Positions 3,001 through 64,000 of a DNA stretch of 64,000 nt are shown here, piece after piece. A program made the translations under genes and the position numbers. Source of the DNA: Amoebophrya sp. A120 (lineage: Eukaryota > Protista > Dinoflagellata); NCBI GenBank assembly GCA_905178155.1, contig CAJINV010000002.1, positions 4,157,214 to 4,221,213 on the forward strand, given 5' to 3'. The first letter of the stretch is position 1. Every line of letters starts with the position of its first letter. The notes beneath the pieces are model-generated. The model searched no databases. It was not told where the DNA came from and saw nothing but the letters and a program-made list of their open reading frames with translations.

Positions 3001-6000
3001 CTTCCCTAAAGCAGAATGAGACGAACGTCCCGACCCAAGCTGACCTGATGGAGCTGAAAGCAGACGGCATGATGCTCACGGCAACCGCGTCGCGGTCCGA
3101 TGGCACCACGTATTCTGCCGCACACGTCTTGAAGTACGAAGCGGGGGTCGTCACCGGTTCGGGTCACGACAACGTGATCAACTATTGCGTGAAGCACGGC
3201 GACGGGAGTAGTTCCACCCAGCCGGAATTCGCGGAATACTTCTGGACCGACCGACTTCCGCGGTTCGTGACCAAGATCCGGCTGTTTAAGGAGACGGGGA
3301 CCAACGGGGATACCATTCAAAACGCGAAAATTTACCTCGACGACGTTTTGGCCGGGACGCTGCCGAAGAAGATCGCTTCCGGGTCGTCCGTATCAAATGC
3401 AAAAATGTCTGTCATGCTGCTTTTGCATGACACAGAAGGTCTGGCATGGAAGCTCTAGCATCACAGGTTTCGTCGAGAAGCTTCCGCAATGCCGAATCTG
3501 CATTACAAGTGCCCGACTTTGATGACAGAAAGTAGTCGGCAGCTTTTGCTGCCTATCATGCATGATAGATTTTTATGTGTTGTGAAATGCGCATCACAAA
3601 TTTGGATTCTTCCAGAGGATCCAGACATGTTTGCATTTGATAGGCCGTCTGTGAACCTCTGTTGAACACCGACTACGCGGGCGACGCTGCATATGGATGT
3701 GTCAGGATCGAAATCAACAAAATCGAAATGATTTGTGATGCATAAACGCGATACCAGTTGGAACCTCAGTTTCCAAGTGGCGCATGACAAATTTCGGGAG
3801 CATCAAAATCCAGTTTGTCATGCTGTTTGGGCAAAGAAGACCGCTCCTGTCATGCTACTCCGGCAGCGCGTCGCCCTTCCCTAAATGGGCTTGCAATCGG
3901 TCTCATTTATTGCCTGCTACCCAACACAGACCTGACTTGCCCTACATTTTACGCATCACAAATTTTTCGATTTTGTCAATTTCAATCCTGACACCCCCAT
4001 ACTGCAACGTCAACGATGACCTCCGGAAAGACGTGGCAGGAATGCGTCCGCGGCTGTGCGGAAAGCTCCACGTGTATGGCGCGGAAAAATCCCCCCTCCC
4101 CATACCAAAGCGGGATACCTTTGAAAATTTGTGATGCTGATTTGAGACCACAAATCGTCTCCGTATTGCAACAAGGCAAATCCAAAAACCTGGCCGCGTT
4201 CTGCAGGTAATTTGTCATGCTGTATGGCCTGCGGAGGACATGCCTGCCTTGCTAGGCGCCTACACCAAAACGCACCTTCTCCCGCTTTGTGACTGCCGGC
4301 ACTCTTCTACTGCAAGACAAGAGAGCCGATTTGTGTACACAAATCCCGCGTCACAGATTGCAAAATGAGGCGCCATAGGCCAGGTTGAAAGCTTCGATCC
4401 AAAAAAGATTCCGACAGCCTGGTACTAGACACTGAAAAGAGCAGCTTTTTCCTCTTATATGATAGCCCTTGACTTGTATACTTTGAGATGTTTTTTGACA
4501 TCACCGGGCCAACTACTGTCAAGGACTCTGCAATCAACATTAGGCATGACACAGCAAACAGAATGGAATGAAGCGAGCTACTTGTAATGCATGATAAAGC
4601 TATCAGCTATAAAAGGGCGAAGCTATTCCGTGGGGAAACAAGAAAAGAAAGAGAAGCAAGAGAAGTAGCCGACGCAGATAAGAAAAGCCACCACAGAGCG
4701 ACGACAGCCATGACAAAACTCCCGCTGCTACTTTCTGAAGCCGCATGAAAGAAGTAGGGGATAAGGGCCATGAGTTGCTTATGCGGGTAAGTTGTGCAAG
4801 GGCTGGACGGGAGGGTAAGTGAGGTCAGAGTGTTGGGGATGTCCTAAGTTGGCAACTATAGGCGTGAGAGGCATTTTCCTATAGTTTTTTACATTTTAAC
4901 CACTACGGCTTCTGTTGCTCTTCTTGAAAGAGCGTCTCGTTGTTGGGCGATCGTTCTGACAGCGCTCCTCTGGGGCTGTCGCGGGGGATGCTTGCGACCA
5001 TATTTTTTGTATAATGATTGGAACATGCCGCGCCTATTAGTACAACGATGGAGATTTGTCCGGCACACCATCGCGAGTCATTTAGATAGGGCGCTTACTC
5101 ATTTTTTTAAGTCTAGGAAAAGACACGCAACTGGGGACGGCACGCTATTGCGCATCTAGCTTCCGCCAAGTCCAGAAGAACGAGCCAAGGACGCTCCCAC
5201 CAATGCAGCAGCGGCCGACCCAGGGTGGTCGAGTGTCGTCCAGGCCGACGGCGGTAGATTCTACTGGAGGCGGGGGCTAGATTTTCAATAGTGGGGGAAA
5301 GATGTCAGGATATGTATGAAGTTTCGTTTCTCTATACCCAAATGCGACCCATATAGGAGCCTTGCTCCTCCGTCAGCATGCGTATAGCATTTGGGTGCAC
5401 TACTGTGTGGAAGGCTCTGCTACTAAAGCTAACTTTTGTCATGAACCCACAGTCAGGTGTCCCGGTCCCGGTTTATATGAGGGGGCACATTGACTCTAGC
5501 TGTAGCATTTCCGAGCGGCCGGATTTCTACAAGCACTGCCTTCGCTCATGCAGTGCTAGTGACATCTTTTAGGGGGGTGCTTACCCTTTTGCATGTTCGA
5601 GTTTGCTTCGTTATTTCTTTTTTTTGATGATGATGATAATGGTTTCTTCTGGCTAGCCCGTCTAAAAAGGGCAATGATCTCCCAAAAGGCATGCTTTGAT
5701 GGGTTTAGGGCTTCGAAGAAATGGCATCGCGTGACGCGTGACGGGAGCACGCAATGTATGCGCAGCGGGCGGGTACCGTTCTCGCCGTAACACAATTCCA
5801 GAAAGAAAGAAAGAGTGATCACATTTTTTTTTTGTGTAGATCACATTTTGTGTAGATCACATTTTTACGTGCGTTTTTTCGGCATCGGCGGCATTCGCAC
5901 TTCGAACCCGGAGTAGTTTCCAAAAGTCCCTCGGCATCTGGGTCATAGTACAGTTTCAGGGTTCCGCGTTTGCTAAATGCACGGCTTTTCGCACTTAGGT

Positions 6001-6876
6001 CACTAGTATCGCCTGTTCCAAATCAGCTCGACCATTTAATATTCGTGGACCTCCCCTTAGAGGAAGCGGGTGCGCTCGGTGGGCCGTTTTCATAGGTTGG
6101 TCATGGGGGACCTGCTCCCCATTTGTAATGCATGACTGGCCGCCGAAGATCTCAGTTTGCATTTGCGTGCTCGAGTACCGGGGCGCAGGAAGGCGAATTA
6201 GTTCTAATAGATATTTTGAAAAATTCTAATCTCTTCGTGCAGCGGCTTACTGCACATACAAATATTCTCGACCGATATCTTTGTATGTGGGCGCGCAGAA
6301 ACTTTTTTTCGATTTACTACGACCCCATCTACCTCCCCTGGTGGACGTCTGCCGCGGCTTACGGCTCTAGACGTTAACTAGGATTCAGTGCGTTGTGCGG
6401 GGTTTAGGGTTCAAAGTAATTTTGTATCTCCCACTGCTGCATGCACTCTGCTGGCGATCTTATCATGCAAAACAACCTCCGGGTTGTTCCCGCGTATCAG
6501 GAGTAGTCCTGGTGCGTGAGGGCCGCAGAAGATGAAGAAAGGTGATGGTTTAGGGGGTTCGCCGATTTTGTACATGTGTGATGCAAAAGATGAAAAGAAT
6601 TTCGCGCGTGGGAGCGCATTAGTAAGCACAACGGGTGGGTGCCGTTCTCACCGTAACACAAGCCCACAAGAACAAGAACATGATCCGCTCCCGCAGGCAA
6701 AAAAAATTTGCGACCACAGATCCTCTCTGTCTTGCACGAAGGCAACCCCACAGGCCCCGCAGTATTATGTAGGCAGTTTGTGATGCTATTGGGCCTACAG
6801 CATAGACGTTTAGCATGCTAAGCACCTAGGCCAGCGCCTCTCTACTCGGGCTTGATATGGGCTTGCAGTCCTCTAG

Positions 6877-6918
<42 letters not shown>

Positions 6919-9900
6919 NNNNNNNNNNNNNNNNNNNNNNNNNNNNNNNNNNNNNNNNNNNNNNNNNNNNNNNNNNNNNNNNNNNNNNNNNNNNNNNNNN
7001 NNNNNNNNNNNNNNNNNNNNNNNNNNNNNNNNNNNNNNNNNNNNNNNNNNNNNNNNNNNNNNNNNNNNNNNNNNNNNNNNNNNNNNNNNNNNNNNNNNNN
7101 NNNNNNNNNNNNNNNNNNNNNNNNNNNNNNNNNNNNNNNNNNNNNNNNNNNNNNNNNNNNNNNNNNNNNNNNNNNNNNNNNNNNNNNNNNNNNNNNNNNN
7201 NNNNNNNNNNNNNNNNNNNNNNNNNNNNNNNNNNNNNNNNNNNNNNNNNNNNNNNNNNNNNNNNNNNNNNNNNNNNNNNNNNNNNNNNNNNNNNNNNNNN
7301 NNNNNNNNNNNNNNNNNNNNNNNNNNNNNNNNNNNNNNNNNNNNNNNNNNNNNNNNNNNNNNNNNNNNNNNNNNNNNNNNNNNNNNNNNNNNNNNNNNNN
7401 NNNNNNNNNNNNNNNNNNNNNNNNNNNNNNNNNNNNNNNNNNNNNNNNNNNNNNNNNNNNNNNNNNNNNNNNNNNNNNNNNNNNNNNNNNNNNNNNNNNN
7501 NNNNNNNNNNNNNNNNNNNNNNNNNNNNNNNNNNNNNNNNNNNNNNNNNNNNNNNNNNNNNNNNNNNNNNNNNNNNNNNNNNNNNNNNNNNNNNNNNNNN
7601 NNNNNNNNNNNNNNNNNNNNNNNNNNNNNNNNNNNNNNNNNNNNNNNNNNNNNNNNNNNNNNNNNNNNNNNNNNNNNNNNNNNNNNNNNNNNNNNNNNNN
7701 NNNNNNNNNNNNNNNNNNNNNNNNNNNNNNNNNNNNNNNNNNNNNNNNNNNNNNNNNNNNNNNNNNNNNNNNNNNNNNNNNNNNNNNNNNNNNNNNNNNN
7801 NNNNNNNNNNNNNNNNNNNNNNNNNNNNNNNNNNNNGTTGTTCCCGCGTATCAGGAGTAGTCCTGGTGCGTGAGGGCCGCAGAAGATGAAGAAAGGTGAT
7901 GGCTTAGGGGGTTCGCCGATTTTGTACATGTGTGATGCAAAAGATGAAAAGAATTTCGCGCGTGGGAGCGCATTAGTAAGCACAACGGGTGGGTGCCGTT
8001 CTCACCGTAACACAAGCCCACAAGAACAAGAACAAGAACAAGTGATCCGCTCGCGCAGGCAAAAAAAAAAAATCCCGCGTCACAGATTTCCACTTCGATA
8101 TAGGGGGGGAGGATTTTTCCTTTTGATAACCTGCAAGCACTTGGTCCACGTCCCCGCTGGTAATGTGGCTGGGGCCGCGAAACTGACGGATGGCACCACG
8201 GGATACTGCCACTTCAAGACCGTGGAGCAGGCCGTCGGTATCCTGTGCAAAAGTATCGTATTCGGATTGCAGTCATGCACTACAAATCCTTTTGTTAAGT
8301 CACATCCGCATATACAAATTTTATTTCTCACGCTGAGGAAATTTGTATATGCATTTATACGAGTGCGATACTTTTGCAATTCATAGTCGGGGATGCTACG
8401 CGATATCCTAAGGAAAAGCGTCCTCTTCACCCCATAGTCAAGATGGGAAATAATTTGCTACACAAATCAACAAGCTTTGGCTGAAGATGTTGCGCATCAC
8501 AAGTCTGACCTCGTCGTATGTAGTGAGGTCACGAACGTTCTATCCTAGCTGTTTTTTTGCCAGGTCTTATGCAAAACGGCCGGCAGTTTTCAAGCGGCCG
8601 GAAGTGTTTTTTGAGATAAAAAATTTCCAATTATCAAGCGGCCGGGGCTTTGCCAACAAACAAGCCCGGTCGAAAACTATCGATTCGCACTTGATAAAAC
8701 GACGCAGGGGAGCCGGCAAAAGGGGCGCCCTTCTGAGGCGTCCACCGCCTTGGTTTCTGGCGGTTTGGGGCGCCCAGAAAGGGGCGCCCAAAAAGCAGCA
8801 CTCCGAAAAAAACAGCGAATCGGCATGGTATGGGCCTCATTTTGCCCCACATTCGGGCCCCGCAAGAAACGCCTTCAAAATCCGCCATTTCAGAGGCTGA
8901 CTGAAGGCCAGAAGATGCGGCATCTTGACAAAAAAAAACAAAAAAAACTAAGTCCGCCAAAAGCAAAAAGCCAATCCGCATGCTATGGGCCCGATTTGGG
9001 GCTCCCAAGGGGCCGACCCTGGCGCGGGCCCTGGCGGAGCCATAGCATGCGGGGAAGGTTTTTCGATTCGAAACCAAATGGAGGCCGCCTCGCTCTGGAT
9101 TGAAATTTTTATCGACCGCCGTGCCGTCGTGCATAACATTACTCACGATGGCATGGTGGGCAGAGAAGTTGCGTCTTTTTTGGCGTGAAGGCAAAAAGAC
9201 CGCCATGACCTCACTACCTCCGCGGACGCGGCTATTAATGGTATTGTAACTAATCCTGTTTTGCACAGCTCGCGCATCAACTATATCACAGATCCAGCCT
9301 ATTATGCTGATTCGAGCATATTGACAAACTCCAAAACACGCTTAGCAAATGCTTCTCATGGGGTTCCGCATGAAAAACCTTTTGAGCATGCAGATTTGCA
9401 TGACAGCTTTGGGAGGTTCGCGGGGACGTTTTTACATAGGATACGCGAAACACGGTCACGAACAGCCTGGACATTATGAAATGCAAAAATGTCTGGGTCT
9501 GGAAGGACCCGAACTTGTGATGCGCATTTTAGAACACAGAAAAATCTCTCATGCACAGGTGGTAGCAAAAGCTGCCGACTTTCTGTCACCAAAATGGGAG
9601 ATTTCTCATGCGGGTTCGGCATTGCGTAAGCTTCTCGAAACCTGTGATGCTAGAGCTTCCATGCCAGCCCTTCTGTGTCATGCAAAAACAGCATGACTCT
9701 TGCTCTTCCAGACCCAGACACTTTTACATTTGATAGACATGACACCGGAATGTCGAGAGGACGTGATGAGCAACTACGACCCGATATCCTAAGAAAAAAT
9801 GTCCCCACCCAATAGTCAAGTTGGTAAATGATCTGCAACACAAAGAACCTCCAAGGTTTGGGAGTTGTGCATGACAAGTGTCCAACATCTCCTGCAGTGT

Positions 9901-12900
9901 AGTGCTGGTAGGCAGCAAGTAGGGAAGCCGCATGAGAAAGCCACTTATTTCTCATCCTGTTTACAGCATTACAGATTTTTCCAAAACATCACGACTGGAA
10001 AAAATGCCTCTCAAGGAGATGCGCATTACAAATGTTTACTGTGATCGCAAATCTGCATGACAACTACCAGCCTTGCCCCGGCTGATACCGGGGCGCAAGG
10101 CTGTTGGGGCGGGGCAGGACTATTTGCGGATCGGGCCACAATGCCACAGGCCTACTATGCATAATGAAGCACACTGGAGTCCTGCCACCTGTTTGCGCGG
10201 CGCCAACCCGCGCGACCACTTGCGCGCTTCCCGCGCCTGTGGGCGCTCTGCGCAGGGAGCAGCTGCAAAGGACACCGGGGGCGAACAGAAGAAGGGTAGC
10301 GCGAGAGGGTGCGCGAGAGGGTTCGGGCGAGCCTATGCATGAAAAGGCCACAGAAGAATCAGCCTCGTGCCGGGCGGTTTCGGGTTTTTCTACCCCTCTC
10401 GCAGACCCTCTTTTTGACCTCTCCCGAGAGGTGTTGCTAATAATCCGGCTATACTCGCCGGCAGAGGTCTGCAGAGGTGGCCGAGAGGTGGCCCAGAGGG
10501 TGCGCGAGAGGTTCGCCCTTATTCGCGCAACCTCTCGGCACCTCTGTCCCCCTCTCGCACACCCTCTCCCGAACCTCTCGGCCACCTCCGTCCCCCATAG
10601 GCGCGGCTTTAGGGTGAACGGTTCGGCTGGCTATACCCGCGCTACCTCTCGGCCGCCCCCTCGAATGACCTCCCGCGCCACCTCTCCACCTCTGTCGACC
10701 TCTTTTTGACCTCTTTTTGACCTCTTTTCACCTCTTTTTGACCTCTCGGCCACCTCTCTGCTATCCTCTGTAGACCTCTTTTTTCGCATGAATATAATAG
10801 ATAGTAATGTGGTCGTGGGGACGTTTTTCTTCAGGATACCTGAGGCAAAACATTTTCGGCACCGATTTCCACATCAACCAGGTGGTCACGATATCCTGTG
10901 CAAAAGTATCGTGCTCGTAGTAATTGCAGTCATGCATTGCAAATCTCTCTCTTAAGGAAAATCAGCATTACAAATTTCATTTTTCATGCTGAGGAAATTT
11001 GTAACGCATTTTATAAATACGACGAGTACGATAGTACTTTTGCAATTCATACACGAAAATAAAACTCGAGTCCGCTGCCAGTAACCGCCAACTGGCGTTT
11101 TGTGGGTTGCAGGTGTTCTACTTGGTTCCGAAAACTTTCGCCTACGCCATGGACCCCGGTGTTTCCGACTTCGACCTGCACGCCGCCGAGTTGCCCTATG
11201 GCGTAGTTCCCAAATGTTACATTCTCAAATGTTACATTTTTGCAATGCAAAATTACAATCAGAATCGACACGATCAAGCTGCAATCCTGCGCAAAAGTAT
11301 CGTACTCGTACTAGACTACTACGCCGGCGTCCAGGACGCCGGCGATAGGTCGTCAAGTAAATCTAAACGCAAATAAGAAACAGGAAAAAACTTGGCGAGC
11401 CTGGGGGCGAAGGCTAGTCGAGAGAGTCCTACCATTGGGAATCTGCTAGCGGAGACGCGACCACTATTAGAAGCCCTCCGGGCGGAGGTATTAGCATGAC
11501 AAAACAGGCCCGCGCTTGCTAGTAACGCTAAAGCCCTTCACTACCACTCGTAACGGTCCGCATTAGTGGGCGCGCTCGCTTTCGTCTCCTAAGCTTCTAG
11601 CCCGCCCCATCCTCCCGGCCGCGGGCCTTCGCCTGATCCCCCTCTTTTGGGCTGTTTGAATTCTAGAAAGAACCACCCGCAACGCCCCTCCTGCCTTTCC
11701 GCCGGCCCCTTCATTCTGAAGAAGCTCGCTAAGTGAGACCGATAGAAAAACTCCTAGAACGGCCCCCCCTACTCGTCAGCCCCTAATATGGAGCGCTCTC
11801 TAATCTATAAGGGCGAGAAATCGGAGGAAAAAAGCGCTGCTGTTGTGTTATTTTCTTCCCGTGAGGAGGACGCACATGCAGGATTTCGATTTTTGGTCCC
11901 CACAATGCCAGTCGTTTTCTTCGGCGCGTCTCCTTCGGAAGAGCTCCGAGAGGCTCCCCTTTTTGCAGGATCCCCGGCGAAGTTGTCCAGTAGCCCCGGC
12001 AAAATTTTAAAGGATCCGAGGGTCCGGCAATTTTGCAGAAGCCTCGGCCTTCCTTTTCTCCAGGCCCCCGACGAAATTTAGCAGGAGCGTCTGCAAAAAT
12101 TTGCACGCAGGATCCGCGGGCCCGGGCGGCAATTTTGCAAAAGCCCCGGCCCCTTTTAGCAGGGTCCGCGACTAAATTTTGCTGAACCCCCATTGAAGTT
12201 TCGCAGGGTCCGGGGCCCGGCAATTTTGCATGTGGCCCCCGCCTCCCTTTTTGCAGGGTCCCCGAGGAAATCTGGACGGGGGGGTCTGCGACATTTTGCA
12301 GGGTCCGGGGGCCCGGCAATTTTGCAGAACCCCCGCCCCCGTTTTTGCAGGATCCCCGAGGAAGTTTCGCAGTAGCCCCTGCAAAATTTTAAAGGATCCG
12401 GGGGCCCGGCCATCTCGCAGAAACCCCGGCCCCCCTTTTTGATTGCAGGCCCCATAGATATATCTGGGGATATATCTGGGGATATATCTGGGGATATATC
12501 TGGGGATATATCTCCCCGATATATCTCCCCGATATATCTCCCCAGACATGTCCCCAGACATGTCCCCAGACATGTCCCCAGATATGTCCCCAGACATGTC
12601 CCCAGATATGTCCCCAGACATGTCCCCAGATATGTCCCCAGACATGTCCCCAGATATATCCCCAGATATATCCCCAGATATATCCCCAGGCTTGCGGCCG
12701 GGTGGTGGTCGTTGTGTGGGGCGGTGGGCTCGCTCGCTCTGCCGGGGTGGGGGCGCTCTTGCACCTCCCCCCCCTACCCCCCCCCGATGGCGCCGGTGCC
12801 GGAGGGTAGCCAGAATAGCGATGCTAAACACCGGCCCGGCGGCTTTTTTGCGGCTCCCCCAGGCGGGGGCATTTGCGCGCTAGCCTGCCACGGGCTCAGG

Positions 12901-15900: not shown

Positions 15901-18900
15901 ACAAACTGGATTTAGGCACCACCAAAATTTGTGATGCGCCACTTAGAAACTGGGTTCGGACTGGAATCCATTTTATGCATGACAAATCATTTCGATTTTG
16001 CCAATTTCGATTCTGACACTTCCATAGACCGAAATTTCGGCATGCCTGTCTGGGACGCAAACCGGCCCAACGAGAAGTGCCGGGGCTTCCAGGTTCGCAA
16101 ATTTCACCCCAGGGCGGGCGCGGGAAATTTCCTATGTAAACTGCATCCCACCACACTCACCTGCAAGGCCTCGCCCGAGGGGGACAACGCGAATCACCCC
16201 CAGTACCGAGATACGAATTGCAAAAGTATCGTACTAGTAGAAATTGCATTACAAATTTTCCCAGCATTAGAAATGAAATCTGTGAAAATGCGGATTGACT
16301 TTTAGGAAAAAAAAAAGAATTGTAATGCATGACTGCAATTACAATTACTACAAGGCAAGTGCGATGCTTTTGCAGAGCATACGAGAGGTCCTCTTCGACA
16401 TGAAGGACGTGTACGACCTATCCTGAGTAAAAATGTCCCCACACCAGAGTCAAGCTGGGAAATCTGCTAGACAAATCTGTCAGCTTTTGCGGTTGCGCAT
16501 GACAAGCCTGGCCTCGTAGTGTAATCCTGTTTAGCTTGTTGAGCAGCATCACAGATCTAGCGCATCGTGCTGATTCTAGCAGCACAGATACCAAAAAGCG
16601 ACCAGAAACTGCTTCTCATGGGTCTCCGCATGAGAAACATTTTCAGCATGCAGATTTGCATTACAACTCTGGGGTGGGGACGTTTTTACACAGGATACGA
16701 CCGGTGCCGCATCATCGAACACGGCATCAACTACGTCAACACGGTATCCTGTGCAAAAGTATCGTACTCGTAGTAATTGCATTCATGCATTACATTTTTT
16801 TTTTTCAAGGAAAATCCGCATGACAAATTTTATTTCTCATGCTGGGGAAATTTGTAATGCATTTATAATTATACGAGTGCGATACTTTTGCACAGGATAC
16901 ACGGTTTTCCGCAGCCTCACCAGCCCCGTTATGACAGTGCACAACTCCCCCTCCCCCTCATTTGTATGGCATGAACGGCAATACAAGCATCAGCGAGGTG
17001 GAGGCCGGTTTTGCATGACAGATTTGCACTGGAGTATAGTGCTATAATTTTAATTTGGGCTACCAGACCCAGAGCCTGTCATGCATAATAAATAGTGACA
17101 GGAGGGCGAGGGAAAGCGTGGATTTGGTATTCTGCATGAGAAATGAGAACGAGGGGGAGTTGTGCACTGTCATACCCGTCTCGGCGACCGCAGAAGCGGA
17201 AACGCCGGCGGGGGGATATCAAAAGGAAAAATCCCCCCTCCCCATATCGAAAAGGCATCCTTTTGAAAATTTGTGTTGCTGATTTGTGGTCACAAATCAG
17301 GTTTGTCTTGCAAGAGAGCAAAGCCAGAGCTTTCGCCGCTTTGCGCAGGCGTGCTGCTGCACCAACAGGGCAGACGTCTGCCATGCTGGGCGCCCACCTC
17401 TGGCCAGCTCTTCCGGGCTTTGTATCTGCCTGCACTCCTATACTGCAAGACAAAGCTGATTTGTGTACACAAATACCGCAACGCAGATTGTCGCTTTGAT
17501 ATGGGGAGGGGGGATTTTTCCGTTCGATAGGGGAAACCAGGCGTACCCCGAACACCTCCAGTCGGACCTGGTGCGACAGTTTTTTCCCTCCCGTTTCCGC
17601 AACGACCAGGAAGAGGTGTTTTGCTTGCAGCCCCGGTATATCTTGTGCAAAAGCATCGCACTCGTAGTAATTGCAGTCATGCATTACAAATTTTTTTCTC
17701 ATGGTCATGGTAAATCCGCATGACAAATTTTATTTCTTATGCTGGGGAAATTTGTAATGCATTTTTACGAGTACTGCGATACTTTTGCAATGCATACGGT
17801 ACCCCTTCGCGTGCGGCAACGCAGCCCCACTGGGCCAGGCGAGTGGAAGCTTAGACGCGCACCCACACGAGGCGAAGTACAACGATCGGCACTACTCGAT
17901 ATCGTACGAAAAAAGTGTTTCACTCGTAAAAGAGTTTTGCAAGCTTTGCATCACAAGTTTCTTTCAGTTCTACATCACAGAGAAATGAATTTGCCATGCG
18001 AGATTCCTAAGGGAAAACACAGCTAAAATTACGAGACTAATAATGATCATTAGCACTATTCTGGGCCTCAGGCCCCCCCTCGACCCCTAATGCCCCCCCT
18101 GAGGCCCCCCCTCAGGCCCCCCCTTAGGCCAAAAAAGGCCACCCCTAAGGCCCCCCCCTTTTGCCCAAAGGGGGGGGTTAGGCCCCCCCGTAGGCCCCCC
18201 CCTTTTTTTCGCGTTCGCAGACGCCTGAGGCCAAAAAAGCCCCCCCTTTTGCCAAAGGGGGGGGGCTAGGCCCCCTTAGGCCCCCCCTTTTTTTCGCGTT
18301 CGCAGACGCCGAATCCAGAACATAAAGCCCGGCAGACTATCGACGACCATGTGACGCCGGCAGCGATCGAACAACCCCGGGCGGCGCCGCGCGCTGTGAG
18401 TCTGGGTTGGCCCGCCGGTTCTCCTTCTGATTGTGGCTGGGGCCGCTTTGGAAAAAATAAATTTGCGATGTCTTTGGCTTTGGCTGAATACTTCGTCCGT
18501 TGCTTCGGCTTTGTCCTTTGGTTTCAATTAATGGCGGGGCCGCTTTGAAAAAAACTACCACCCGCAAATGCGGGCGGGGGCGCTTTGGAAAGTTTTGAAA
18601 CAATTGCGCAGGCGGGGCCGCCTCGAGGTAATGCCTAAGCGCGGGCGGGGCCGCTTCGCCAAGGGGAGATCTTCTTGCCCTTTCCCTTTCCCTTTTCCCC
18701 CCCCTCCGTTCCTTTGGCGCGTGGCCTGGGCTTCGCCGTTTTCTACGCGTCCGGCTTCTTCTTGGCCCCCGCCTTCATGGCCTCTCCGTCCGGCCGGGAG
18801 CCCTTCCTGAAGCCTCCCCTGAGCCCCCCCCGGCAGACTGAGGTCCCCCCAGAGGCCCACCCCCTACGGCCCCCGCCGCCTAGGGCCTGCCCTGAAGTTT

Positions 18901-21900
18901 TAAAGCCCAGCCCCTGCGCCCATGCCCCCTCTCAGGCGCCGGCCAGGCCTTTCAGAATTGCAAGCCCCGCCGGCCTTTGCGGGTCAGGGCCTTGCCTTCG
19001 CCTTTTGTCCTTATGCTTTTTTTGCCCGATTGCGATTGCCCGCGGCAAGCCAAGCAATCCGAGCAGAAGCCTCAAAAGGCAAAGGGCCCACCGGGCCAGC
19101 CCGGACACTGTTCCTCCCAAGGCGCAGCAAGGCCACCCCGAAAAACCTAGGCAGCCAAGGTCTTTCCTCCGGCTTTCTGGTCGTTGTAATGAACCCCGAA
19201 AGTGGCAAGGAACGAAGAGAAGCCGGCGAGGCCGAAGAACCCGGAGGGGCTTTCGGGCTTCCAGTCGGCCCCCGGAAACGGACGGCTTCTCTAGCTCAAA
19301 GGCCCGCCACCCCATAGAGGCCCCACTCTGGCCCACCCTGTATGGCATGCCCTGTAGCCCTATTGGACCGCGCCCAGTCGCAGGCGCCGGAAAGGTTCTC
19401 CTGAATGCTTTGGCATTTTTAGAACATTGGCAAGCCGAAGTCCCCCCCTATGAACACCCAAAAGACCCGCCCGGCAGTGCCTTTGCTCCCTAGGGCCAGC
19501 CTTCTGCCCTGAAGCTTTTTTTGCTCGAATGCAAGTCCTTGCGCCGGCCATTGCCCGAGCCCCGTCTGTCTCAGGCGCCGGCAGGGTCTTTCGAAATGAA
19601 TTAAAAGCCGCGGCGGCCCGCGCGACGGAATCACTTCGCGCGTTCGCCTTTTCTTTGCCCTGCCTTCGCACGTTCGCCCGATTTTGGCGGCCCATGGCAA
19701 AGCAATTCGGGCAGAAGCGTGCAAAACGCCCGCACAGGCCGCCTGGACATTGTTCCATCCCCCCCTCCTCAATCGCAGCCATTCGCCGGCCCCCTTACTT
19801 TAGAATAAATCCTGGAGGGGGTCCCTCCGCCGTGGGGTTTTCTGATCGTTGGGACAGGGGCCAAAGGGGCAAGGCCGAGCGACAAGGTCGGGCAAACCGA
19901 GGAGGCTTTCGGGCTTCAAGTTTCGGAGCGAAAGGGCCGCCCCGTCATAAAAGCAGGCCAATGAGGCACGGAGCAAGCCTTCGGGCCTAAGGCCCCCACA
20001 AAAGCCCCCCCTATGCCCCCCTCGGGCCCCTCCATTCCCATTGGCCAGCCCGGCAGGGCACTGCCTCGCTCCCTGGGGCCTTCTGCCCTGAAGCTTACTT
20101 TGAAGCCTGCCCGGCCCAGGCGCCGGCAGGGTCTTTCGGATAGTTAGAATAAATGAGAAGCCGCGCCGGCCTGCGCGACCAAACCGCACCAGGCTTTCGC
20201 CTTTTGCCCTTTGCCCCGCCCCCCGATTTTGGTTGCCCGCGCCCAGTCGATTCGAACAGAAGTCCGCAGAGGGCCCCCAGGGCCCGCCCGGGCATTGTTC
20301 CCCCTCCCCCCGCCAAAGCCATCCCGTTGGCCCCCGCCTCTAAAAACGAAACCCAACAAGCCCAAGGCCGCCCCACCCTAAGGCTTTCCAGGCGTTGCAA
20401 GGTGGGCCGCAAGTGGAAAACCCAGGCGAGCTCGAGCAGCCCGATGGAGCTTGCGGGCCTCCGGCCCCCGGAACTGAAGGGCCTCATTGCCTCGAATAAT
20501 TAAAGGCCCCCCCCACAGGCCCGCCCCCCTTGGGGCCCCCCCTGCGTCCCACTCTGAAAGGCATACCCTGCTGCCCTATTGTTCAGATCAATGCCCCGGC
20601 GCAGGCAGGGGACAGGTTTACCGAAAAAATAAACAATAAACTTTTGCAAGCTTCGGCACACTCTAAAGCCGAACCCGCCCGGAGGCCCCTCCCCCTCGCT
20701 CGGCCCCCCCCCTGGGGTTTTCCTTGAGGCCCCCCTGAGGCCCGTTGTGAGGCCACCCGCCGCCACCCTTTCGGCCCCCCGGAGTATCCATGGCCAGGCG
20801 GCCCCGTACGGCCCTCGCCCCCTAGGGCCTGCCCCGCAACTTCCTACCTAGCCTAGCCCTTGCCTCGGTGCGTGCCCCCCCGTCTCAGGCGCCGAAGAGG
20901 TCGCGTCTTTCAAAATTGAAAGTCGCGCCGGCCTGCGCGGGTCACAAACGTCGCGCCTTCTCCTTTTGCCCCAGCCATTTTTGCCCGACGGACTTTGATT
21001 GCTCGCGGCAAATCAATTCGACCCGAAGCCCCCAAAGGGCACACCGGGCCAGCCCGCGCGCCGTTTCCCCTCAACCGCGGCCACCCCGAATGCCCCCGCC
21101 CGCGAAAGATCTAGACAGAGGAGACGTTTCCTATGGCTTTCCGAAGCCTGTTCGAAATCCAAGAGGGGCGGGGGCGCTCCTTTCGCGCAGTTGCTGGGCG
21201 GGGGGGCGCCGCCAGATATTTCCTTTTTGTTTTATTTTGTGTTGGCACATGGCCAGCATGCAGATCAGCCAGCCACTTCGGCCCGCCCGCCTGTCGCTTT
21301 CTTTGTACTCGGCCGCCATGCCTTCACCGTCCGGCCCTATCGTACGCCATCCCGCGGCTGCCACCTGCGAAGGATTCCCGCAAAATCGAGCGCAGCAACT
21401 GCCTTCCCCGCGCCCCGGAGGTGTGTAGGGTGGCGAAATAGGGCCAGGCCGCCACAGCCAATACGAACACAGAAGCCAGGCGAATATCTGTGCCGCAGCA
21501 TTCACTTGCCCCGCCGGCGGGCCCTGTTTCGTCAGCGCATTTTTTCAGCGTGCTGCCCATGCATGATCAGCGGAGCCGCGTCGCAATGTTGTTAGTTTAT
21601 CCAGCACCGGACACGAAGCCGCGCCTTGCTTCAGCCTTCGGGCCGCCGCCTTTCTGCTTCGCTTCCGCTGTGCAGGTGTCTGGAGGCCTGTTGGCTTCTT
21701 CAGAGCTGGCAGGCAGCTGCTCTGGCTGTATCCGTGGCGCCTTTTTGCTTTCTGTCTACAGCTGCTGCCCCTACAACTTTTATCAGCGCTATGCACTGAT
21801 CTCCTGGCCTTGTCGCGCTACTCTTCCTTAGCGCTACCCCTGCCCCGCCCTTCCCCCTTCCCAGGAAGCCCAGCCCAACAGTCCTACTGATCATTTTACT

Positions 21901-24900
21901 GAATGCGACAAAATCAAGCTCAAGAAAGGGCCGCCCTTCAGGGCGACCCGTCTTCTTGTAAATTTAGTGTCTTGCATGTGTAGCAAGACAAACACTGCGC
22001 AGATACATTTTCTGCATTACAAGTTTACAGTGAAGCAGTTTTTTCTTGCGATACTCGACGAGCGAATGCTACTACCTCTGCTCCCAGACTCCCTTCTATG
22101 CAAGAAAAAAACTGTGTTAGTGTACTAGGTCTTTTGGGAAAACAGCATCACAAGTTTGTCTGCGAGGGAAAACTTGTGATGCGCAGATAGGAAGGGAAAA
22201 CACGTAGGAAGCGAGCCGATCATGCATGTCGAGCATGACAGGTGTAACTGTTTTGCATTTTCTGCATCACAGATTTACACTTACACAGTTTTTTTCTTGC
22301 ATACCTTCTGCGAGGAGTTCGAGCTGTACATCGGCTGGGAAGCGTATCGCGAGAAAAAACGGACTCAGTCTCAACTTGTAATGCGCAACTTCCTTGAGAC
22401 AGTTTTTTCTTTTTGTCATGCTGACGAACACGTACACGCTCACGCTGCAAGAGAGTCACTTTTCATATTTATAGGTCTTTGCCTTGTGTCTAACGTAATA
22501 TCACAGGTTATTTTCTGTGTCATGCTGACCAAATTTGTATTGCTGATCCTGATTCTACTACAAGCGTTTGAGACGGCGACAGCTCTTTCTTGCGATAAAG
22601 CGAAACGCGAAAGCTCGAGCAAGTTGCAGGGGTTTAACTATTACCAGCACTGTATCCTGTGTAAAAACGTCCCCACACCAGAGTCAAGATGGAAAATCTG
22701 CTAGTAGAGAAATCAACCAGCGCTGGTTGTCTCGCATGGCAAGTTTGTCCTCATAAGTGTAATGCTGTTTCTTTTGCTAGTTCAGAAGCGTCACAGATCT
22801 TGCAGGGCATACTCATTCTAGCATCACAAATCCCAAAATACGAACAGAGACCGCTTCTCATAGGGCTCCGCATGACAAACATTTTTGGCATGCAGAATTG
22901 CATGACAACTCTGGGGTGGGCGGGACGTTTTTACTCGGGATACACTGCAAACTGTTCAGGGCCGGGTGCGCGTGTGATATCCTGTGCAAAAGTATCTGAT
23001 ACTCGTATTGCAATCATGCATTTACAAATCTTTCTCTTAAGGTAAATCAGCATTACAAATTTTATCTCTCATGCTGAGGAAATTTGTAATGCATTGATAC
23101 GAGTAGGAGTGCGATACTTTTGCAATTCATATGTGACAACCCATGTCAACTGGGGGACGGCCTATGGGGAGAAAAAAGTTTGTCCCAGTCGCTAACGTGG
23201 AGGCTTTGCATTTACAAAGTCTTTTAAGTAGCATCACAACTTTTCCTTGTGTTGCAGAAACACGAAGGGAAATCACGTATGAAGTTTAGCTGTGGTGTGT
23301 TTTTACTCATGACAGGCATTTTTTGTATTGCAAAAATGCCCATGAGTGATCGTGACGAGCTTTTTTCTTTTGATACGGCCAGTTTACGGTGCACTACCGC
23401 ATGAAGGACTGCTACTCATCGAAGAGCGCCTATGGGGGTGTCAGGATCGAAATCGACAAAATCGAAAAATTTGTGATGCATAAAATGCGGGGCACGCGAG
23501 GCCTGTATTGGGGAGCAGGCAAATGAGACCGATTGTGAGCCTGTTTAGGGGTGGTCGTATGAAATGTGTTGCCAGAGTAGCATGACAGGAGCAGGTGGTC
23601 CCGAACAGCATGACAGACTGGATTTTGGTGGTTCCGAAATTTGTCATGCGCCACTTGGAAACTAAGGCTCCAACTGGCATCGATTTTGTGCATCACAAGT
23701 TTTTCGATTGTGTCGATTTCGATTCTGACACTTCCACAGCGCCGGGAGCAGCTTCGGTCTCGTGAAGGGCTTGCAACTGGTGTCTGGGACGCCCGCAACC
23801 AAGCGGCCCAGCGGGGACGACGAGACAGTGTTTACGCTGAAGAGGCAATTCCCGGACCGGGTGTTACCGGAGGAGGAGACGCTGATGGCAGACGCCGGTA
23901 CAACCCTGGTGGAAGACGAGTTGCAACTACCCTTCGGAAAGGACGAGAAGCGGCCCGACGAGATCGCGGCCTGGGCTGCGGGTCCATCTGCTGATTATTC
24001 TTACTCCTTGTGGGCGGAACCAAACTACGAGCGGCGCGTGAACCCCAGCGCGAAAATATCAAAGTGAAAAACCCCTCCTCCCCATGTTGAAGCGGGGATT
24101 TCTGTTGCTGAATTTGTGTACACAAATCAGCTCTGTCTTGCAGTGAGGCACTGCAGGCAGAGCCGAGGCCTGCGTAGGAGTGTTTTGGTGTAGGTGCTTC
24201 GCATACTGCAGAGGCTTGCCATGTAGCCGCAACAGCATTACAAACCGCCTGCATCAAGATCCGGCGGATTCTTTGGCTTTGCCGTCTTGCATGAGAGACA
24301 GGACTTGTGGCCACAAATCAGCATCGCAAATCTATTTTCGAAGCGTACCTTTTCAGTATGGGGAGGCGGGGGAATTTTTCCTCACAATAGAAAACGGACA
24401 CGTTGAACGAGCTCCCGAGCAACGCTGCTATCAAAAGGAAAAATACCCCCTCCCCATATCGAAAAGGAAATTTGTGATGCTGGATTTGCGTACACAAATC
24501 AGATTTGTCTTGCAGTAGAGGAGTGCAGGCATGTGCCAACCCTGGGCAGCGAGGTGTTGACATAGGCGCCTGGCATTACAAGTGTCCACGCCGTAGGCCC
24601 AACAGCATCACAAATCGCCTGCATAATGCGGCGGAGCCTGTGGAGTTGCCTACTGGCAAGACAGACCCGACTTGTGGTCACAAATCAGCATTGCAAATTT
24701 TCTGTGGCTTCCTTTTTGTTATGGGGAGGGGGGATTTTTCCTTACGATAGCTGCACTGTTATCCTTTGTAAAAACGCGCCCACGACCCCATAGTCAAGAT
24801 GTGAAATCTGCTAGACAAATCACCCAGCTTTGCTTGCTGCAGCTGCGCATGAAAGGTTTGGCCTTGGTGTAGTGTAGTTCTGTTTAGCTAGTAGCTCCAG

Positions 24901-27900
24901 CAGCATCACAGATCTCGCCTATAATCATGCGAGTTCGAGCGTCACAAATTCCACAACGTGACGAAGAATGAAACGCGTCTCATGGGGCTCCGCATGAGAA
25001 AGATTTTTCCCATGCAGATTTGCATGACAACTTTGGGGTGGGGACGTTTTTGCATAGGATGACTGTCCGCTTTGGTGCATTCCGACACGGGACTACAGGA
25101 CGAACAGCACCACTGCACGGACTACAGCCTCTTTCTGGGCCACGAGTGGCTCACCGCTACGCAGTATGAACTGCAAAAGTACCGTACTCGTATAAATGCA
25201 TTACAAATTTCCTCAGCATGAGGAATGAAATTTGTAATGCGGACGAGCCTTAAAAAAAAATTTGTAATGCATGATTGCAATACGAGTGCGATACTTTTGC
25301 ACAGGATACGCAGGGCAGGAAAGAGGCGGCGTTCGCCGCCCGCCACACCCTGAAGCGAGCGTACCTATGAAATGCAAAAATGTCTGGGTCTGGGAGATTG
25401 CAAGATTTGTCATGCTTGTCTGGCATGACCATCAAGCTTGTGATGCGTGTCCAAGAAGAGACCCTTTTTCCTGTCGTGCAAAAACGCAGTTTGTCATGCG
25501 AAAATCGCAACACAAAGAAGCGCAGATATTTCTCATGCTTGGCTGTGCATTACAGAGCATTCACTATTCCCAGCGCAGCATTACAAGTTTCCAGACCCAG
25601 ACATTTTTGCATTTGATAGCACCAGGTCCTGAGCAACTACAAGATCAACCCCCACTATCCGGGAAAAAAAGTGTGTAAGTCTAAGTGTAACCCTAACCTT
25701 CTTGGAGGAACAGCATCACAAATTTGCTCTGTATGACAGAGAAATAGACCTCTCATGCGTAGCTAGTATCAGTGAAAACACTTAAGTACTACGAGAAGAA
25801 CCTCTGATGCATGTCCAGCATGACAAGTGTACGCATCTACTTGCATCCCCTGCAACACAAATTTTTAATACACTTACGCCGTTTTTTTCTTGCATACCCA
25901 CCGGGCCGACTTTCTGCAGACCCCGGACGGGGTGCACCGGGATTTCCTGAATGAGGCGATCAACTTCTGTTACTATTCCGAAAGCTCAGCCAGCTACCCC
26001 TTTTGGGAGTGGAAAAGCTACGACGGCTTCCCGGTGCCCCTCACCAAACTGCGCGTTTGGAACACCAACCAGGCGGGGGATCGAGACTTTCTGAAGCCGT
26101 TTTACCTATTAACTGCAAATATGTCTATGGGTCTGGAAACTTGTGATGCTGGTTGGCGAATCCTGACGACGCCATAAGTGACGGCTCAGCATGACAAGTT
26201 TCTGACTTGCTAGGTGTTGGGTATAATTCTGCATGACAAACCGCCTTTCGGCATGACAGAAAAGTGGGACTACTTTTGGGCAACGAGCATGACAGACCTT
26301 GGAGTCATGCTACCGGAGCATGACAGACCTTCCATTCTTCCAGATGACCCAGACATTTTTGCAATCCATATTACCTCCTGATTGACAACGGAATCTTCTT
26401 GGGGAGTTTTGACCCAAGCAGCGCGCTATCAAATGTAAAAATGTCTGGGTCTGGAAGGGTTGGAACTTGTGATGCAAAGAACTCTGGGACACACAAAAAT
26501 TTGTGTTGCATGAGCGCCAAAAGCTGTCCATTTCTTGTCACGCAAGTAGGAAGTTTCTAATGCGGGACAGGCATCACGAGGCGTGCACAAAACCTGTGAT
26601 GCTTTTGCCCGCATCAGACGCCATTTGCCTGATCCGAACTATGCATGACAAATCTCGCAATATTCCAGACCCAGACATTTTTACATTTGATGCGCGCAGA
26701 AGTTGACCACGGTGCAGCAGAGTGAGACGAACAACGAGGGGCTCGACGGGCTGTACACGAGCACGGGGAAGTACATGGCGACCATTGCCCTGTACAGGGA
26801 ACTGAAAACCCTGCGGATCCAGGCGCAGGCGGCCAGCGACAAGTTGATTCTATGCGGGTTGGAGCTCTTCGTGGCCGCCTCGGACGGGAGAAAGTTACGC
26901 AAGTTTCAGGACTTTACCGTGTCCGTCTTCCCCAAACGGGACGAGGCGAACACCTTGTATCCTGTGCAAAAGTATCGTACTCGTAGTTGTAATTGCATTT
27001 ATCTTTATGCGTATACAAATCTCTTTCTCAAGGCAAATCAGCATTACAGATCCAATTTGTAATGCTGGGCTAATTTGTAATGCAATTTATACTAGTTGTA
27101 CGATGCTATTGCGTTGCATACCTTGGGGGACCCGACAACGGAGCATAGGTACCGGGCGGTAACCAATATCAAATGCAAAAGTGTCTGGGTCTGGAAGAAT
27201 GCAACTTGTCATGCTGAATCTGAAGCATGCAAAAACTTGCGTTGCGTGATTACCAAAAGATGTCCACTTTTGACCAGTTTGACGGGGAGTTTCTCATGCA
27301 GGATAGGCACGATAGACACCTCACAGCGTTTGTCATGCTAGGCGCTGCATTCCAGGCCTCATGGGTCATGGAAAAACTGCATTTCTTGCATTCTTCCAGA
27401 CCCAGACATTTTTGCAATCCATAACCAACCCCCACGCCGTGAACGGCGTCGACGTGCCGGACTATAACGGCTATCAAATGCAAATGTGTCTGGGTCTGGA
27501 AGAGTGTAACTTATCACGCTATGTATATGTATCTGGGTCGTGGAAAAATTTGTGTTGCATGATTACCAAAAGAGGTCCACTTTTGAACAAGTTTAGAGGC
27601 GGTTTCTCATGCAGGAAAGGCATGGTAGAGATCTCACAGAACCTGTTATGCTAGGCAGTGCATGCCAGACCGTGGGGGTCATGGAAAACCTGCATGACAA
27701 ACCTAGCAATCTTCCAGACCCAGACATTTTTGCATTTGATAACGGCGCTACCGCCGCAACCACCGTCCACGGCGGATTTCTGGCCTTCGGGTATCAAATG
27801 TAAAAATGTCTGGGTCTGGGAAAATGCAACTTGTGATGCTGCATTTGGATTCCAGAAAAATCTGTATTGCATGAGTACCAAAAGGAATGCAATTTTTGCT

Positions 27901-63823: not shown

Positions 63824-64000
63824 TATCCTGAGTAAAAACGTACCCACACCAGAGTCAGGATGGTGAATCTGCTAGACAAATCAGCCAGCCTTGGTTGTTT
63901 GGCATGACAAGTTTGTCCGCGTAGTGTAGTGCTGTTTGAGCTAGTTTAGCAGCATTACAGATCTAGTATCTCGTGCTGATTGGAGCATGACAAATTTCAA
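63824..64000. mobile_element. Introner E (runs off window)
   Basis: Left TIR TATCCTGAGTAAAAACGTACCC. Confidence 0.85.

Follow-up and report, generated by a model that had tools for sequence, protein, structure and literature searches.

Mirror-image ends and two-way insertion of transposon-like introns in a giant gene of Amoebophrya sp. A120

The window analysed here, a 64-kb stretch of the genome of Amoebophrya sp. A120, carries short repeated elements that interrupt one long reading frame in either orientation. How are such inserts removed, and does their indifference to orientation tell against the spliceosome, as the first-pass annotation of this DNA had implied?

The host gene and its inserts

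A single giant gene fills the window and is broken up by 105 small transposon-like inserts.

33..63823, + strand, part of the host gene: 11,682 coding nt in 106 exon pieces, both gene ends outside the window

Once each of the 105 elements is removed together with one copy of the 5-bp duplication flanking it, 3,893 codons are read without a stop; retention of the element keeps the frame in 1/105 cases and destroys it in 104/105. One of the four exons scanned against Pfam (38125-39792) matched PAN_4 (E=5.7e-8) and PAN_1, which points to PAN/apple domains. The rule is a simple one (TAT...ATA plus 5 bp removed), and with it genes can be found that would escape standard gene finders.

All 105 elements are TAT...ATA inverted repeats. 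Their duplication is identical at 5/5 positions in 81 and at 4/5 in 21, and at offsets of 1-3 it is perfect in none; at the loci of another assembly, detected with a threshold of at least 3/5, the corresponding figures are 333 and 75 of 417. TAT is found at the 5' end of 100/105 window elements and ATA at the 3' end of 96/105. Each end consists of TAT, a loosely kept 4-nt spacer and a TGCAAAA-like tract, with A at positions 11-13 in 82, 85 and 99 of 105 (the A tract is divergent in families D and F); further inward lies a 9-mer common to all families, on both strands. In the window and at the other loci alike, the 5' logo and the reverse-complemented 3' logo are nearly identical. The sole polarity observed in these otherwise mirror-image ends is a small one: the first base, T (U in the transcript), is invariant in 105/105 window copies and 229/229 copies of the other loci, whereas the last A is lost in five and three copies, respectively (pooled p=0.008 against the invariant first base; one of the three replicate departures comes from a locus with mixed strand calls).

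The interior can be stretched considerably.

43762..52804, - strand, family A element, 9,043 bp long owing to an internal insertion with a satellite of about 177 bp
1907-2977, 4075-8128, 8404-9443, 9785-10838, 11197-14193, 17900-22053, 28434-29558, 31006-33469 and 55710-56787, nine further stretched elements of 1.0-4.2 kb (those at 4075 and 28434 contain assembly gaps)

In the longest of these the ends and the 5-bp duplication are intact, and the reading frame continues across it.

Orientation could be called for 98 of the 105 window elements, the other seven being too weak. Letters A, D and F are those of the first-pass annotation, the remainder having been assigned in the follow-up. Copies are listed by start position, with the tally of + to - copies.

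Family A (23 copies, 8239..63380; 12:11): + 8239, 10892, 16745, 17639, 22978, 26958, 43531, 55061, 59566, 59765, 59959, 61190; - 16212, 25165, 30122, 31006, 41121, 42980, 43762, 53230, 53856, 62243, 63210
Family B (23 copies, 788..62728; 14:9): + 788, 9475, 14265, 15437, 25366, 26427, 27167, 27472, 27792, 28112, 36253, 41421, 52887, 59184; - 3391, 26107, 28434, 43183, 54278, 57188, 60167, 61777, 62461
Family C (11 copies, 8404..59133; 10:1): + 8404, 9785, 16419, 22653, 24760, 34470, 41977, 53426, 55325, 58855; - 30408; a further copy at 63824 is cut by the window end
Family D (11 copies, 3692..61704; 6:5): + 3692, 14935, 35577, 37581, 54594, 55710; - 14588, 15718, 23431, 40202, 61385
Family E (11 assigned copies, 1907..63769; 5:6): + 1907, 4075, 17217, 29620, 39793; - 24057, 24429, 33982, 36870, 60500, 63447
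Family F (3:3; the small families span 106..63005): + 490, 40825, 58226; - 11197, 33687, 36545
Family G (3:2): + 16930, 57525, 60895; - 34809, 37351
Family H (3:3): + 106, 42347, 62788; - 22097, 25656, 37911
Family H2 (2:0): 35974, 57924
Without an orientation call: 1528, 17900, 22345, 23163, 42622, 57033, 58621

Eight families (A-H) thus occur both ways round in the window. In the other assembly a family could be assigned to 207 of the 229 copies with a strand call, and their orientation is 106:101. When both sets are pooled no family deviates from 1:1 at p<0.05; the apparent 10:1 bias of family C was 9:14 in the replicate and is rejected. The annotation had named eight elements as mutually opposed.

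3692..4001, + strand, family D, duplication CTGCA
14588..14900, - strand, family D, reversed
23431..23738, - strand, family D, reversed, 3' end ACA
37581..37886, + strand, family D
8239..8385, + strand, family A, fold z=-6.4
25165..25308, - strand, family A, reversed, fold z=-7.9
490..739, + strand, family F
33687..33924, - strand, family F, reversed

Comparison of the interiors only, with 30-45 nt trimmed from each end, bears this out. As reverse complement versus same strand, the element at 3692 matches 14588 at 85% versus 53% and 23431 at 78% versus 51%; for 37581 the values are 86% versus 53% and 84% versus 52%. The family A pair gives 85% versus 54%, and the family F pair 66% versus 54% (score 104 versus 12, the best of 100 shuffles reaching 4). 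Since all eight lie in one + strand frame, elements opposed to one another are also opposed relative to the gene.

Insertion target and kinship of the elements

Measured from the centre of the duplication, the insertion sites are palindromic: T occurs at -15 in 48/105 and A at +15 in 39/105 window sites, and the same preference is replicated at the other loci (105/229 and 116/228), where the palindrome correlates with itself (r=0.76) only if centred on the duplication. Insertion would be the work of a two-fold symmetric transposase or integrase making a 5-nt staggered cut in a palindromic DNA target with T at -15, G at -13, C at +13 and A at +15. Copies inserted by such an enzyme would be expected in both orientations, in a ratio of about 1:1. 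With terminal inverted repeats (TIRs), a target duplication of fixed length and no coding capacity found, the elements have the characters of MITEs. No transposase domain and no other Pfam match was found in 20 ORFs within the long inserts of the window, nor a transposase domain in the 33 scanned of 75 long ORFs from the other-assembly loci; neither the window nor 550 kb of loci yielded an autonomous, transposase-bearing partner. Three long copies occur at those loci, one with a 415-codon ORF lacking a Pfam match, and viral contigs gave no match.

Judged by their sequence, the window elements are very likely the published introner elements of A120 (Farhat et al. 2021, PMC7789003). Those have inverted repeats of TAT, seven looser bases and AAA, direct repeats of 3-5 nt (5 bp in the legend of Fig. 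S19), a hairpin, many families and a mean length near 240 nt, with up to tens of them in one gene (PMC12130899); in the window we likewise find TAT + 7 nt + AAA repeats, direct repeats, nine families and non-canonical borders. The published view disfavours transposase-driven spread in A120 (PMC7789003). Contrary to it, the replicated palindromic target and the strict 5-bp duplication point to a real transposase or integrase.

PMC7789003, which considered introns of 40-1000 bp only, does not say in the text covered how the elements lie with respect to the gene (the word "orientation" is used four times, for gene order, and "strand" not at all), and it mentions neither multi-kb copies nor an inner motif common to the families nor any preference for particular targets. 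Our literature search, in which papers free of subscription predominated, gave nothing on how Amoebophrya introners are oriented or which targets they prefer. In the literature searched, the palindromic target preference, the 9-mer of all families, the invariant first U and ends that work up to 9 kb apart appear to be unreported. The finding itself is not new in kind, as the A120 elements have been described before and introners in both orientations occur in other organisms. Huff et al. in 2016 are reportedly one source for introners in two orientations. In Polarella glacialis and Aureococcus anophagefferens, introners are TIR-bearing, duplication-flanked derivatives of DNA transposons that serve as introns in either orientation; unlike the window elements, they have a preferred orientation and obtain GT/GC/GA-AG sites either from their own sequence or from the duplication (bioRxiv 10.1101/2020.10.14.339549).

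How the elements may be removed

In the window GT..AG borders are possible in only 2/105 elements, counted over all six registers, and at the other loci in 9/229 in any register; GT/GC/GA..AG is possible in 3/105 and AT..AC in 4/105 (window, all six registers). The elements thus lack the canonical borders of U2 and U12 introns (GT/GC..AG or AT..AC). No 3' dinucleotide is conserved, the final 4-5 nt being a random duplicate, and branch-like motifs show no sense-strand excess (CTRAY 15 vs 24, YTRAY 48 vs 58 of 105). The ends are predicted to pair in 91 of the 95 window elements folded, as a short stem, a 4x4 loop and a long stem, with terminal pairing in both orientations. G.U and A.C mismatches are 96:84 in the window and 109:132 at the other loci, that is, there is no G.U excess and no wobble signature of selection for RNA pairing; a single ungapped 25-nt count did give 138:100 (p=0.016), with which the gapped count disagreed, and it was set aside.

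The near-identical logos, the lack of orientation bias, the near absence of GT..AG and the two-way folding uphold that part of the earlier interpretation which held the removal signal to be symmetric. The implied argument from two-way insertion against the spliceosome is not supported: a terminal inverted repeat presents identical ends, and permits insertion, either way round, and the spliceosomal introners of Polarella and Aureococcus also insert both ways. Orientation therefore does not exclude the spliceosome.

At which level removal takes place is indicated by assembled reads. Eight listed contigs of the DNA-like run X1 (one sample, possibly the assembly's own) cross 15 exon/element borders, 12 of them by at least 31 letters, at a depth of 15.6-29.1 against 23.7-27.3 in exon-only bins, which is single-copy. 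In X3 and X6, two runs from one sample whose RNA status is a software guess, nine of 16 listed pieces stop at seven borders, belonging to four reversed and three forward copies, and none of the 16 crosses a border.

34809..42267, RNA-like contigs stop and continue with other letters at 35042 (family G, -), 38122 (H, -), 39793 (E, +), 40523 (D, -), 41265 (A, -), 41421 (B, +) and 41977 (C, +)

Where the duplicates at such a border are unequal, the upstream letter is kept in 3/3 (duplicate positions 1, 2 and 4). Codon likelihood left the exonic duplicate undecided (30 upstream vs 39 downstream). Contigs joining exon and element at other loci are present in the RNA-like runs, so the elements would seem to be transcribed, or DNA was carried over; the raw RNA run X9 matched the end of family B only and no exon. 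From these patterns we consider it highly probable that removal occurs at the RNA level.

We lean, at somewhat less than even chances, towards transposon-like introns that are removed from pre-mRNA by a modified spliceosome reading the paired ends rather than GT-AG. A transcript of either orientation would present UAU...AAAA at its 5' end and UUUU...AUA at its 3' end; these would pair, after which the element and one duplicate would be removed. To judge from one informative contig, the 5' cut would likely coincide with the first U or lie a single base ahead of it, and the 3' cut would likely fall 4-5 nt beyond the last A. Least certain is the catalyst, which might be a U2/U5/U6 core working without the normal U1-based choice of donor. 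If the cut were to fall one base inside the duplicate, the invariant U would become position +2 of the intron. Position +2 is a base fixed by both known spliceosomes. A120 has more than 60% non-canonical introns with RNA-seq support (66,565 introns called against the genome), 83/89 spliceosomal proteins and all major snRNAs except U1 (PMC7789003), and in Fritillaria TIR-derived non-canonical introns are handled by the spliceosome (reviewed in PMC11282704). Counting against a modified spliceosome are the missing 3' dinucleotide and branch-motif excess, and two ends which, the first U excepted, are conserved alike, something that a donor/acceptor machine need not produce.

The same features would suit a separate RNA pathway in which a structure-guided endonuclease cuts the paired ends and a ligase joins the exons, a scheme already put forward for the nonconventional introns of euglenids; we hold this reading to be a serious one if rather doubtful. 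Near-perfect symmetry, the lack of splice dinucleotide or branch bias and one terminal fold for both orientations are what it would predict, and the nonconventional introns of Euglena, which require inverted repeats and are thought to be handled by other machinery (PMC12501133), are excised as circles (PMC11282704). The wobble signature of pairing is, however, absent from both element sets, no such enzyme was identified here, and the organism of PMC7789003 retains a nearly full spliceosome. Like the window elements, euglenid nonconventional introns have no GT-AG, pair at their termini, are bordered by duplications, are of MITE-like origin and reach kilobases; they differ in their CAG/CTG consensus and purine|pyrimidine borders, where the window has TAT/ATA and a strict 5-bp duplication, and their circular products have been demonstrated (PMC12501133, PMC11282704). 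The end logos contain no CAG/CTG terminal pairing. A more specific proposal, unlikely as we see it, is a second, spliceosome-independent splicing system that would read transposon ends as a signal of two-fold symmetry and remove element and target duplication exactly, in either orientation and up to 9 kb long, possibly with a domesticated transposase bound to the end and 9-mer motifs. If true, one DNA-transposon system would be harmless anywhere in coding sequence.

Ciliate IESs are transposon-derived, interrupt coding sequence, have symmetric ends and lose exactly one repeat copy on removal, in all of which they resemble the window elements; they leave the DNA of the somatic nucleus, and are mostly bounded by TA, one TA being left behind in the Paramecium type. 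The first-pass annotation had offered a removal of this kind as one of two options, the other being structure-guided RNA processing. Programmed excision before transcription would fit both the symmetry, as double-stranded DNA shows an identical site at both ends, and the absent wobble bias, and X3 and X6 are RNA only by guess. It is nevertheless improbable, for DNA-like contigs read through borders at single-copy depth where RNA-like contigs stop, 417 elements are retained in place in the second assembly, and instead of TA the borders carry a 5-mer of varying sequence; leaving TA plus both repeats (k=-2) yields 65 stops. We know of no separate germline nucleus in Amoebophrya's group, so that DNA excision would be inherited and would purge the elements. 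The 66,565 introns called from RNA-seq against the genome (PMC7789003) also speak against it.

Skipping by an RNA polymerase, which would pass the looped-out element and realign between the 5-bp repeats with no splicing step, would account for the symmetry of the ends, for the retention of the upstream copy and for why a direct repeat is required. Few mismatches fall at positions 4-5 of the window duplicates (5/28), which would also suit it, but this deficit did not recur in the other assembly (19/41). The exon-element contigs of the RNA-like runs suggest transcribed elements (or DNA carry-over); we know of no precedent for skipping on such a scale and regard it as very improbable. Hairpin plus direct repeat, which the elements combine, is the recipe for reverse-transcriptase slippage, but a dead gene whose splicing is such an artefact is scarcely credible given 3,893 stop-free codons after removal, a frame destroyed by retention in 104/105 cases and 13/28 synonymous duplicate mismatches against 25% expected (p=0.013).

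The locus narrows the mechanism by which tens of thousands of A120 introns without splice dinucleotides would be removed: orientation is irrelevant, the interior is expandable to 9 kb, the letters of the target can vary freely, and no polarity other than the first U was seen. The 24/105 copies with unequal duplicates, among them those at 490, 53230 and 60895, whose duplicates differ at position 5, are ready-made markers of the exact cut site.

Strand asymmetries that did not replicate

Five strand asymmetries of the window failed in the replication set of 229 strand-called copies from the other assembly. Apart from the orientation of family C, these were a sense-strand excess of C over G at the duplication centre (49:21, p=0.001; replicate 54:67), a C-richer downstream duplicate (14:4; replicate 14:11), mismatches clustered at duplicate positions 2-3 (19/28; replicate 11/41) and sense strands that folded at lower energy (58/95, p=0.011; replicate 61/120, p=0.63). 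A TA-duplication reading (Tc1/IES) is ruled out by the 5-bp repeat. A departure from the usual first base was seen in one weakly called copy of the other assembly.

The elements and their host gene

We recognised 105 complete elements, which start with TAT, end with ATA and make up 80.6% of the window. Two scans yielded 81 and 10 accepted elements, two and six further candidates having been dropped because they were false or needed new bounds; another 14, long or irregular, were placed by hand. The element end at 39793 was shifted 2 nt after a frame shift was seen, and the shift yielded a perfect 5-bp repeat. The 5-bp direct repeat at the borders is perfect in 81/105 elements, and never perfect at offsets of 1–3. 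Over the whole window the exon-like pieces have 61% GC and the elements 44%. Removal of each element with 5 bases leaves a single + strand frame of 3,893 codons and no stops; removal with 2 or 8 bases gives 1 or 2 stops, and the out-of-frame choices 37–65. The frame would survive element retention in one of 105 cases, and no GT-AG intron is required anywhere along the window gene. Most insertion sites are spaced 25–70 nt apart. Features of this region are as follows.

33–63823, + strand: gene fragment; its protein (more than 3,893 residues) has PAN domains, cysteine-rich repeats and Pro-Gly/Thr-rich linkers, and appears from its sequence to be surface- or adhesion-like
8386–8403, 24750–24759 and 37565–37580: very short exon pieces between adjacent elements (13, 5 and 11 coding nt)
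38123–39792: element-free exon of 1,665 nt (median exon piece in the gene, 55 nt)
43762–52804: 9-kb insert within a family A element, with a degenerate satellite of ~177 bp at 48534–50925 (13.5 copies, TRF) and other repeats; no Pfam match among its scanned ORFs
~10060–10800 and ~55750–56530: inserts in the elements at 9785 and 55710, by eye one more repeat family in opposite orientations

Ten elements are enlarged to 1–9 kb by inner inserts, and all have kept their ends, repeat and frame. At both ends TAT is followed by a 4-nt spacer of looser sequence and then by a tract resembling TGCAAAA; positions 1–3 and 8–14 of the two ends pair in 81–101 of 105 elements and positions 4–7 in only 48–64, a pattern shared by copies in a replicate set of loci from another assembly. 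The ends are paired in the predicted folds of 91/95 short elements, and oppositely oriented family A copies have an identical predicted terminal stem and 4x4 loop. A 9-mer, RCAY[GCT]A[CG]AR, frequently lies ~42 nt inward from each end; it occurs 310 times on both strands of the 95 elements on which it was defined, against 8.8 in shuffles and none in 12,153 exon bases. The locus detector demanded a relaxed version of this motif, so that finding it in all 229 strand-called replicate copies is circular.

Judged by their ends, which fit the description of the A120 introner families, these elements are already known. In the literature searched we found no report of the orientation, target preference or inner motif of A120 introners, whose supplementary figures and datasets may contain such data. 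The elements are real and known, and the present results place useful new constraints on their mechanism.

Orientation, end symmetry and insertion target

The opposed copies singled out in the first-pass annotation are real: the interiors of family D (3692 and 37581 versus 14588 and 23431) and family A (8239 versus 25165) are 78–86% identical as reverse complements and those of family F (490 versus 33687) 66%, against 51–54% on the same strand. Eight of the nine families are present both ways round, the ninth having two copies only. The replicate set was obtained by searching metagenome contigs for the pattern of a family B end, the listed contigs belonging to one other assembly; its 141 overlapping loci (549,953 bases) have no exon 30-mers in common with the window. 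In the window the detector recovered 91/95 short elements and called nothing else; in the replicate loci it identified 417 unique copies. Gene strand was assigned to 229 of these by a codon model (no miscalls in 19–33 test calls per chain length; mixed calls in 1/72 loci), and the 207 that could be given a family are oriented 106:101. Pooling window and replicate reveals no family with a deviation from 1:1 at p<0.05. Insertion phase is uneven in the replicate (102:64:63) versus even in the window (36:35:34), which may reflect frame miscalls.

In both sets the 5' and 3' end logos are mirror images. Of the gene-strand asymmetries suggested by the window, five did not replicate. One polarity survives, the first base being T in 334/334 copies and the last A missing in 8/334 (p=0.008), although one of the three replicate last-base losses is in the mixed-strand locus and one weakly called copy departs at the first base. 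A GT..AG cut is possible in only 2/105 window and 9/229 replicate copies. The symmetric removal signal proposed earlier can be located in the mirror-image ends, but is almost rather than fully symmetric, as the first-base polarity held up. That symmetry identifies the machine does not follow: an inverted repeat presents the same donor- and acceptor-side text either way, and the spliceosomal introners of Polarella and Aureococcus function in both orientations (bioRxiv 10.1101/2020.10.14.339549).

Once the coding sequence is joined, the target shows a palindrome centred on the middle of the repeat, with T at -15 in 48/105 and A at +15 in 39/105 (r=0.49, offsets 8–20, p=2e-4). The replicate has T at -15 in 105/229 and A at +15 in 116/228, together with a further pair, G at -13 with C at +13; symmetry is r=0.76 at the repeat centre and at most -0.09 if shifted by 1–2. 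Insertion would presumably be the work of a transposase or integrase that has two-fold symmetry and cuts with a 5-nt stagger, and such an enzyme by itself would account for copies landing both ways round. None turned up in our scans of the inserts and of the replicate loci. One replicate family B element (L075:476–2934) has a 2.2-kb inner insert with a 415-codon ORF (1514–2758, - strand) without Pfam match, and this insert looks like a nested element, not a mobiliser.

Level and catalyst of removal

Four sequencing runs were compared over 33470–43760. In X1, a DNA-like run, eight of the contigs listed traverse 15 borders, 12 of them by at least 31 letters, at a depth (15.6–29.1) similar to that of exon-only bins (23.7–27.3). 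X3 and X6 are both from one sample and are guessed to be RNA; among their 16 listed pieces none crosses a border, nine end at seven borders (four at reversed and three at forward copies) and then run into other letters, four are exon-only and three are other element copies. If it follows the predicted mRNA, one contig is long enough to span eight elements, among them the 9-kb one. At three borders with unequal repeats (positions 1, 2 and 4) the upstream letter is retained; only position 4, in one contig of depth 3.6, indicates an off-centre cut. No element-skipping joint occurs among the 15 of 762 joints shown, in a table dominated by repeats that could conceal rare DNA excision. The 66,565 RNA-seq-supported A120 introns, >60% of them non-canonical (PMC7789003), point in the same direction as the contrast between X1 and X3/X6. 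Removal at the RNA level is highly probable.

A modified spliceosome has a little under an even chance of being the catalyst. The invariant first U is in its favour, as are a Fritillaria precedent (PMC11282704) and an A120 spliceosome set described as nearly full, with U1 not found, in PMC7789003. A separate RNA pathway is a somewhat less likely candidate, suggested by the lack of a 3' dinucleotide and of branch bias in the elements and by a precedent in Euglena (PMC12501133 and PMC11282704). The IES-like DNA excision that the first-pass annotation offered as one of two possibilities is very improbable, as X1 contigs cross borders at exon-like depth and X3/X6 pieces stop there.

In X9, a raw RNA run under the same species label, 73–90 reads match the family B end at 36253–36284 and, in the run comparison, none matches an exon; a related isolate thus has the same end sequence.
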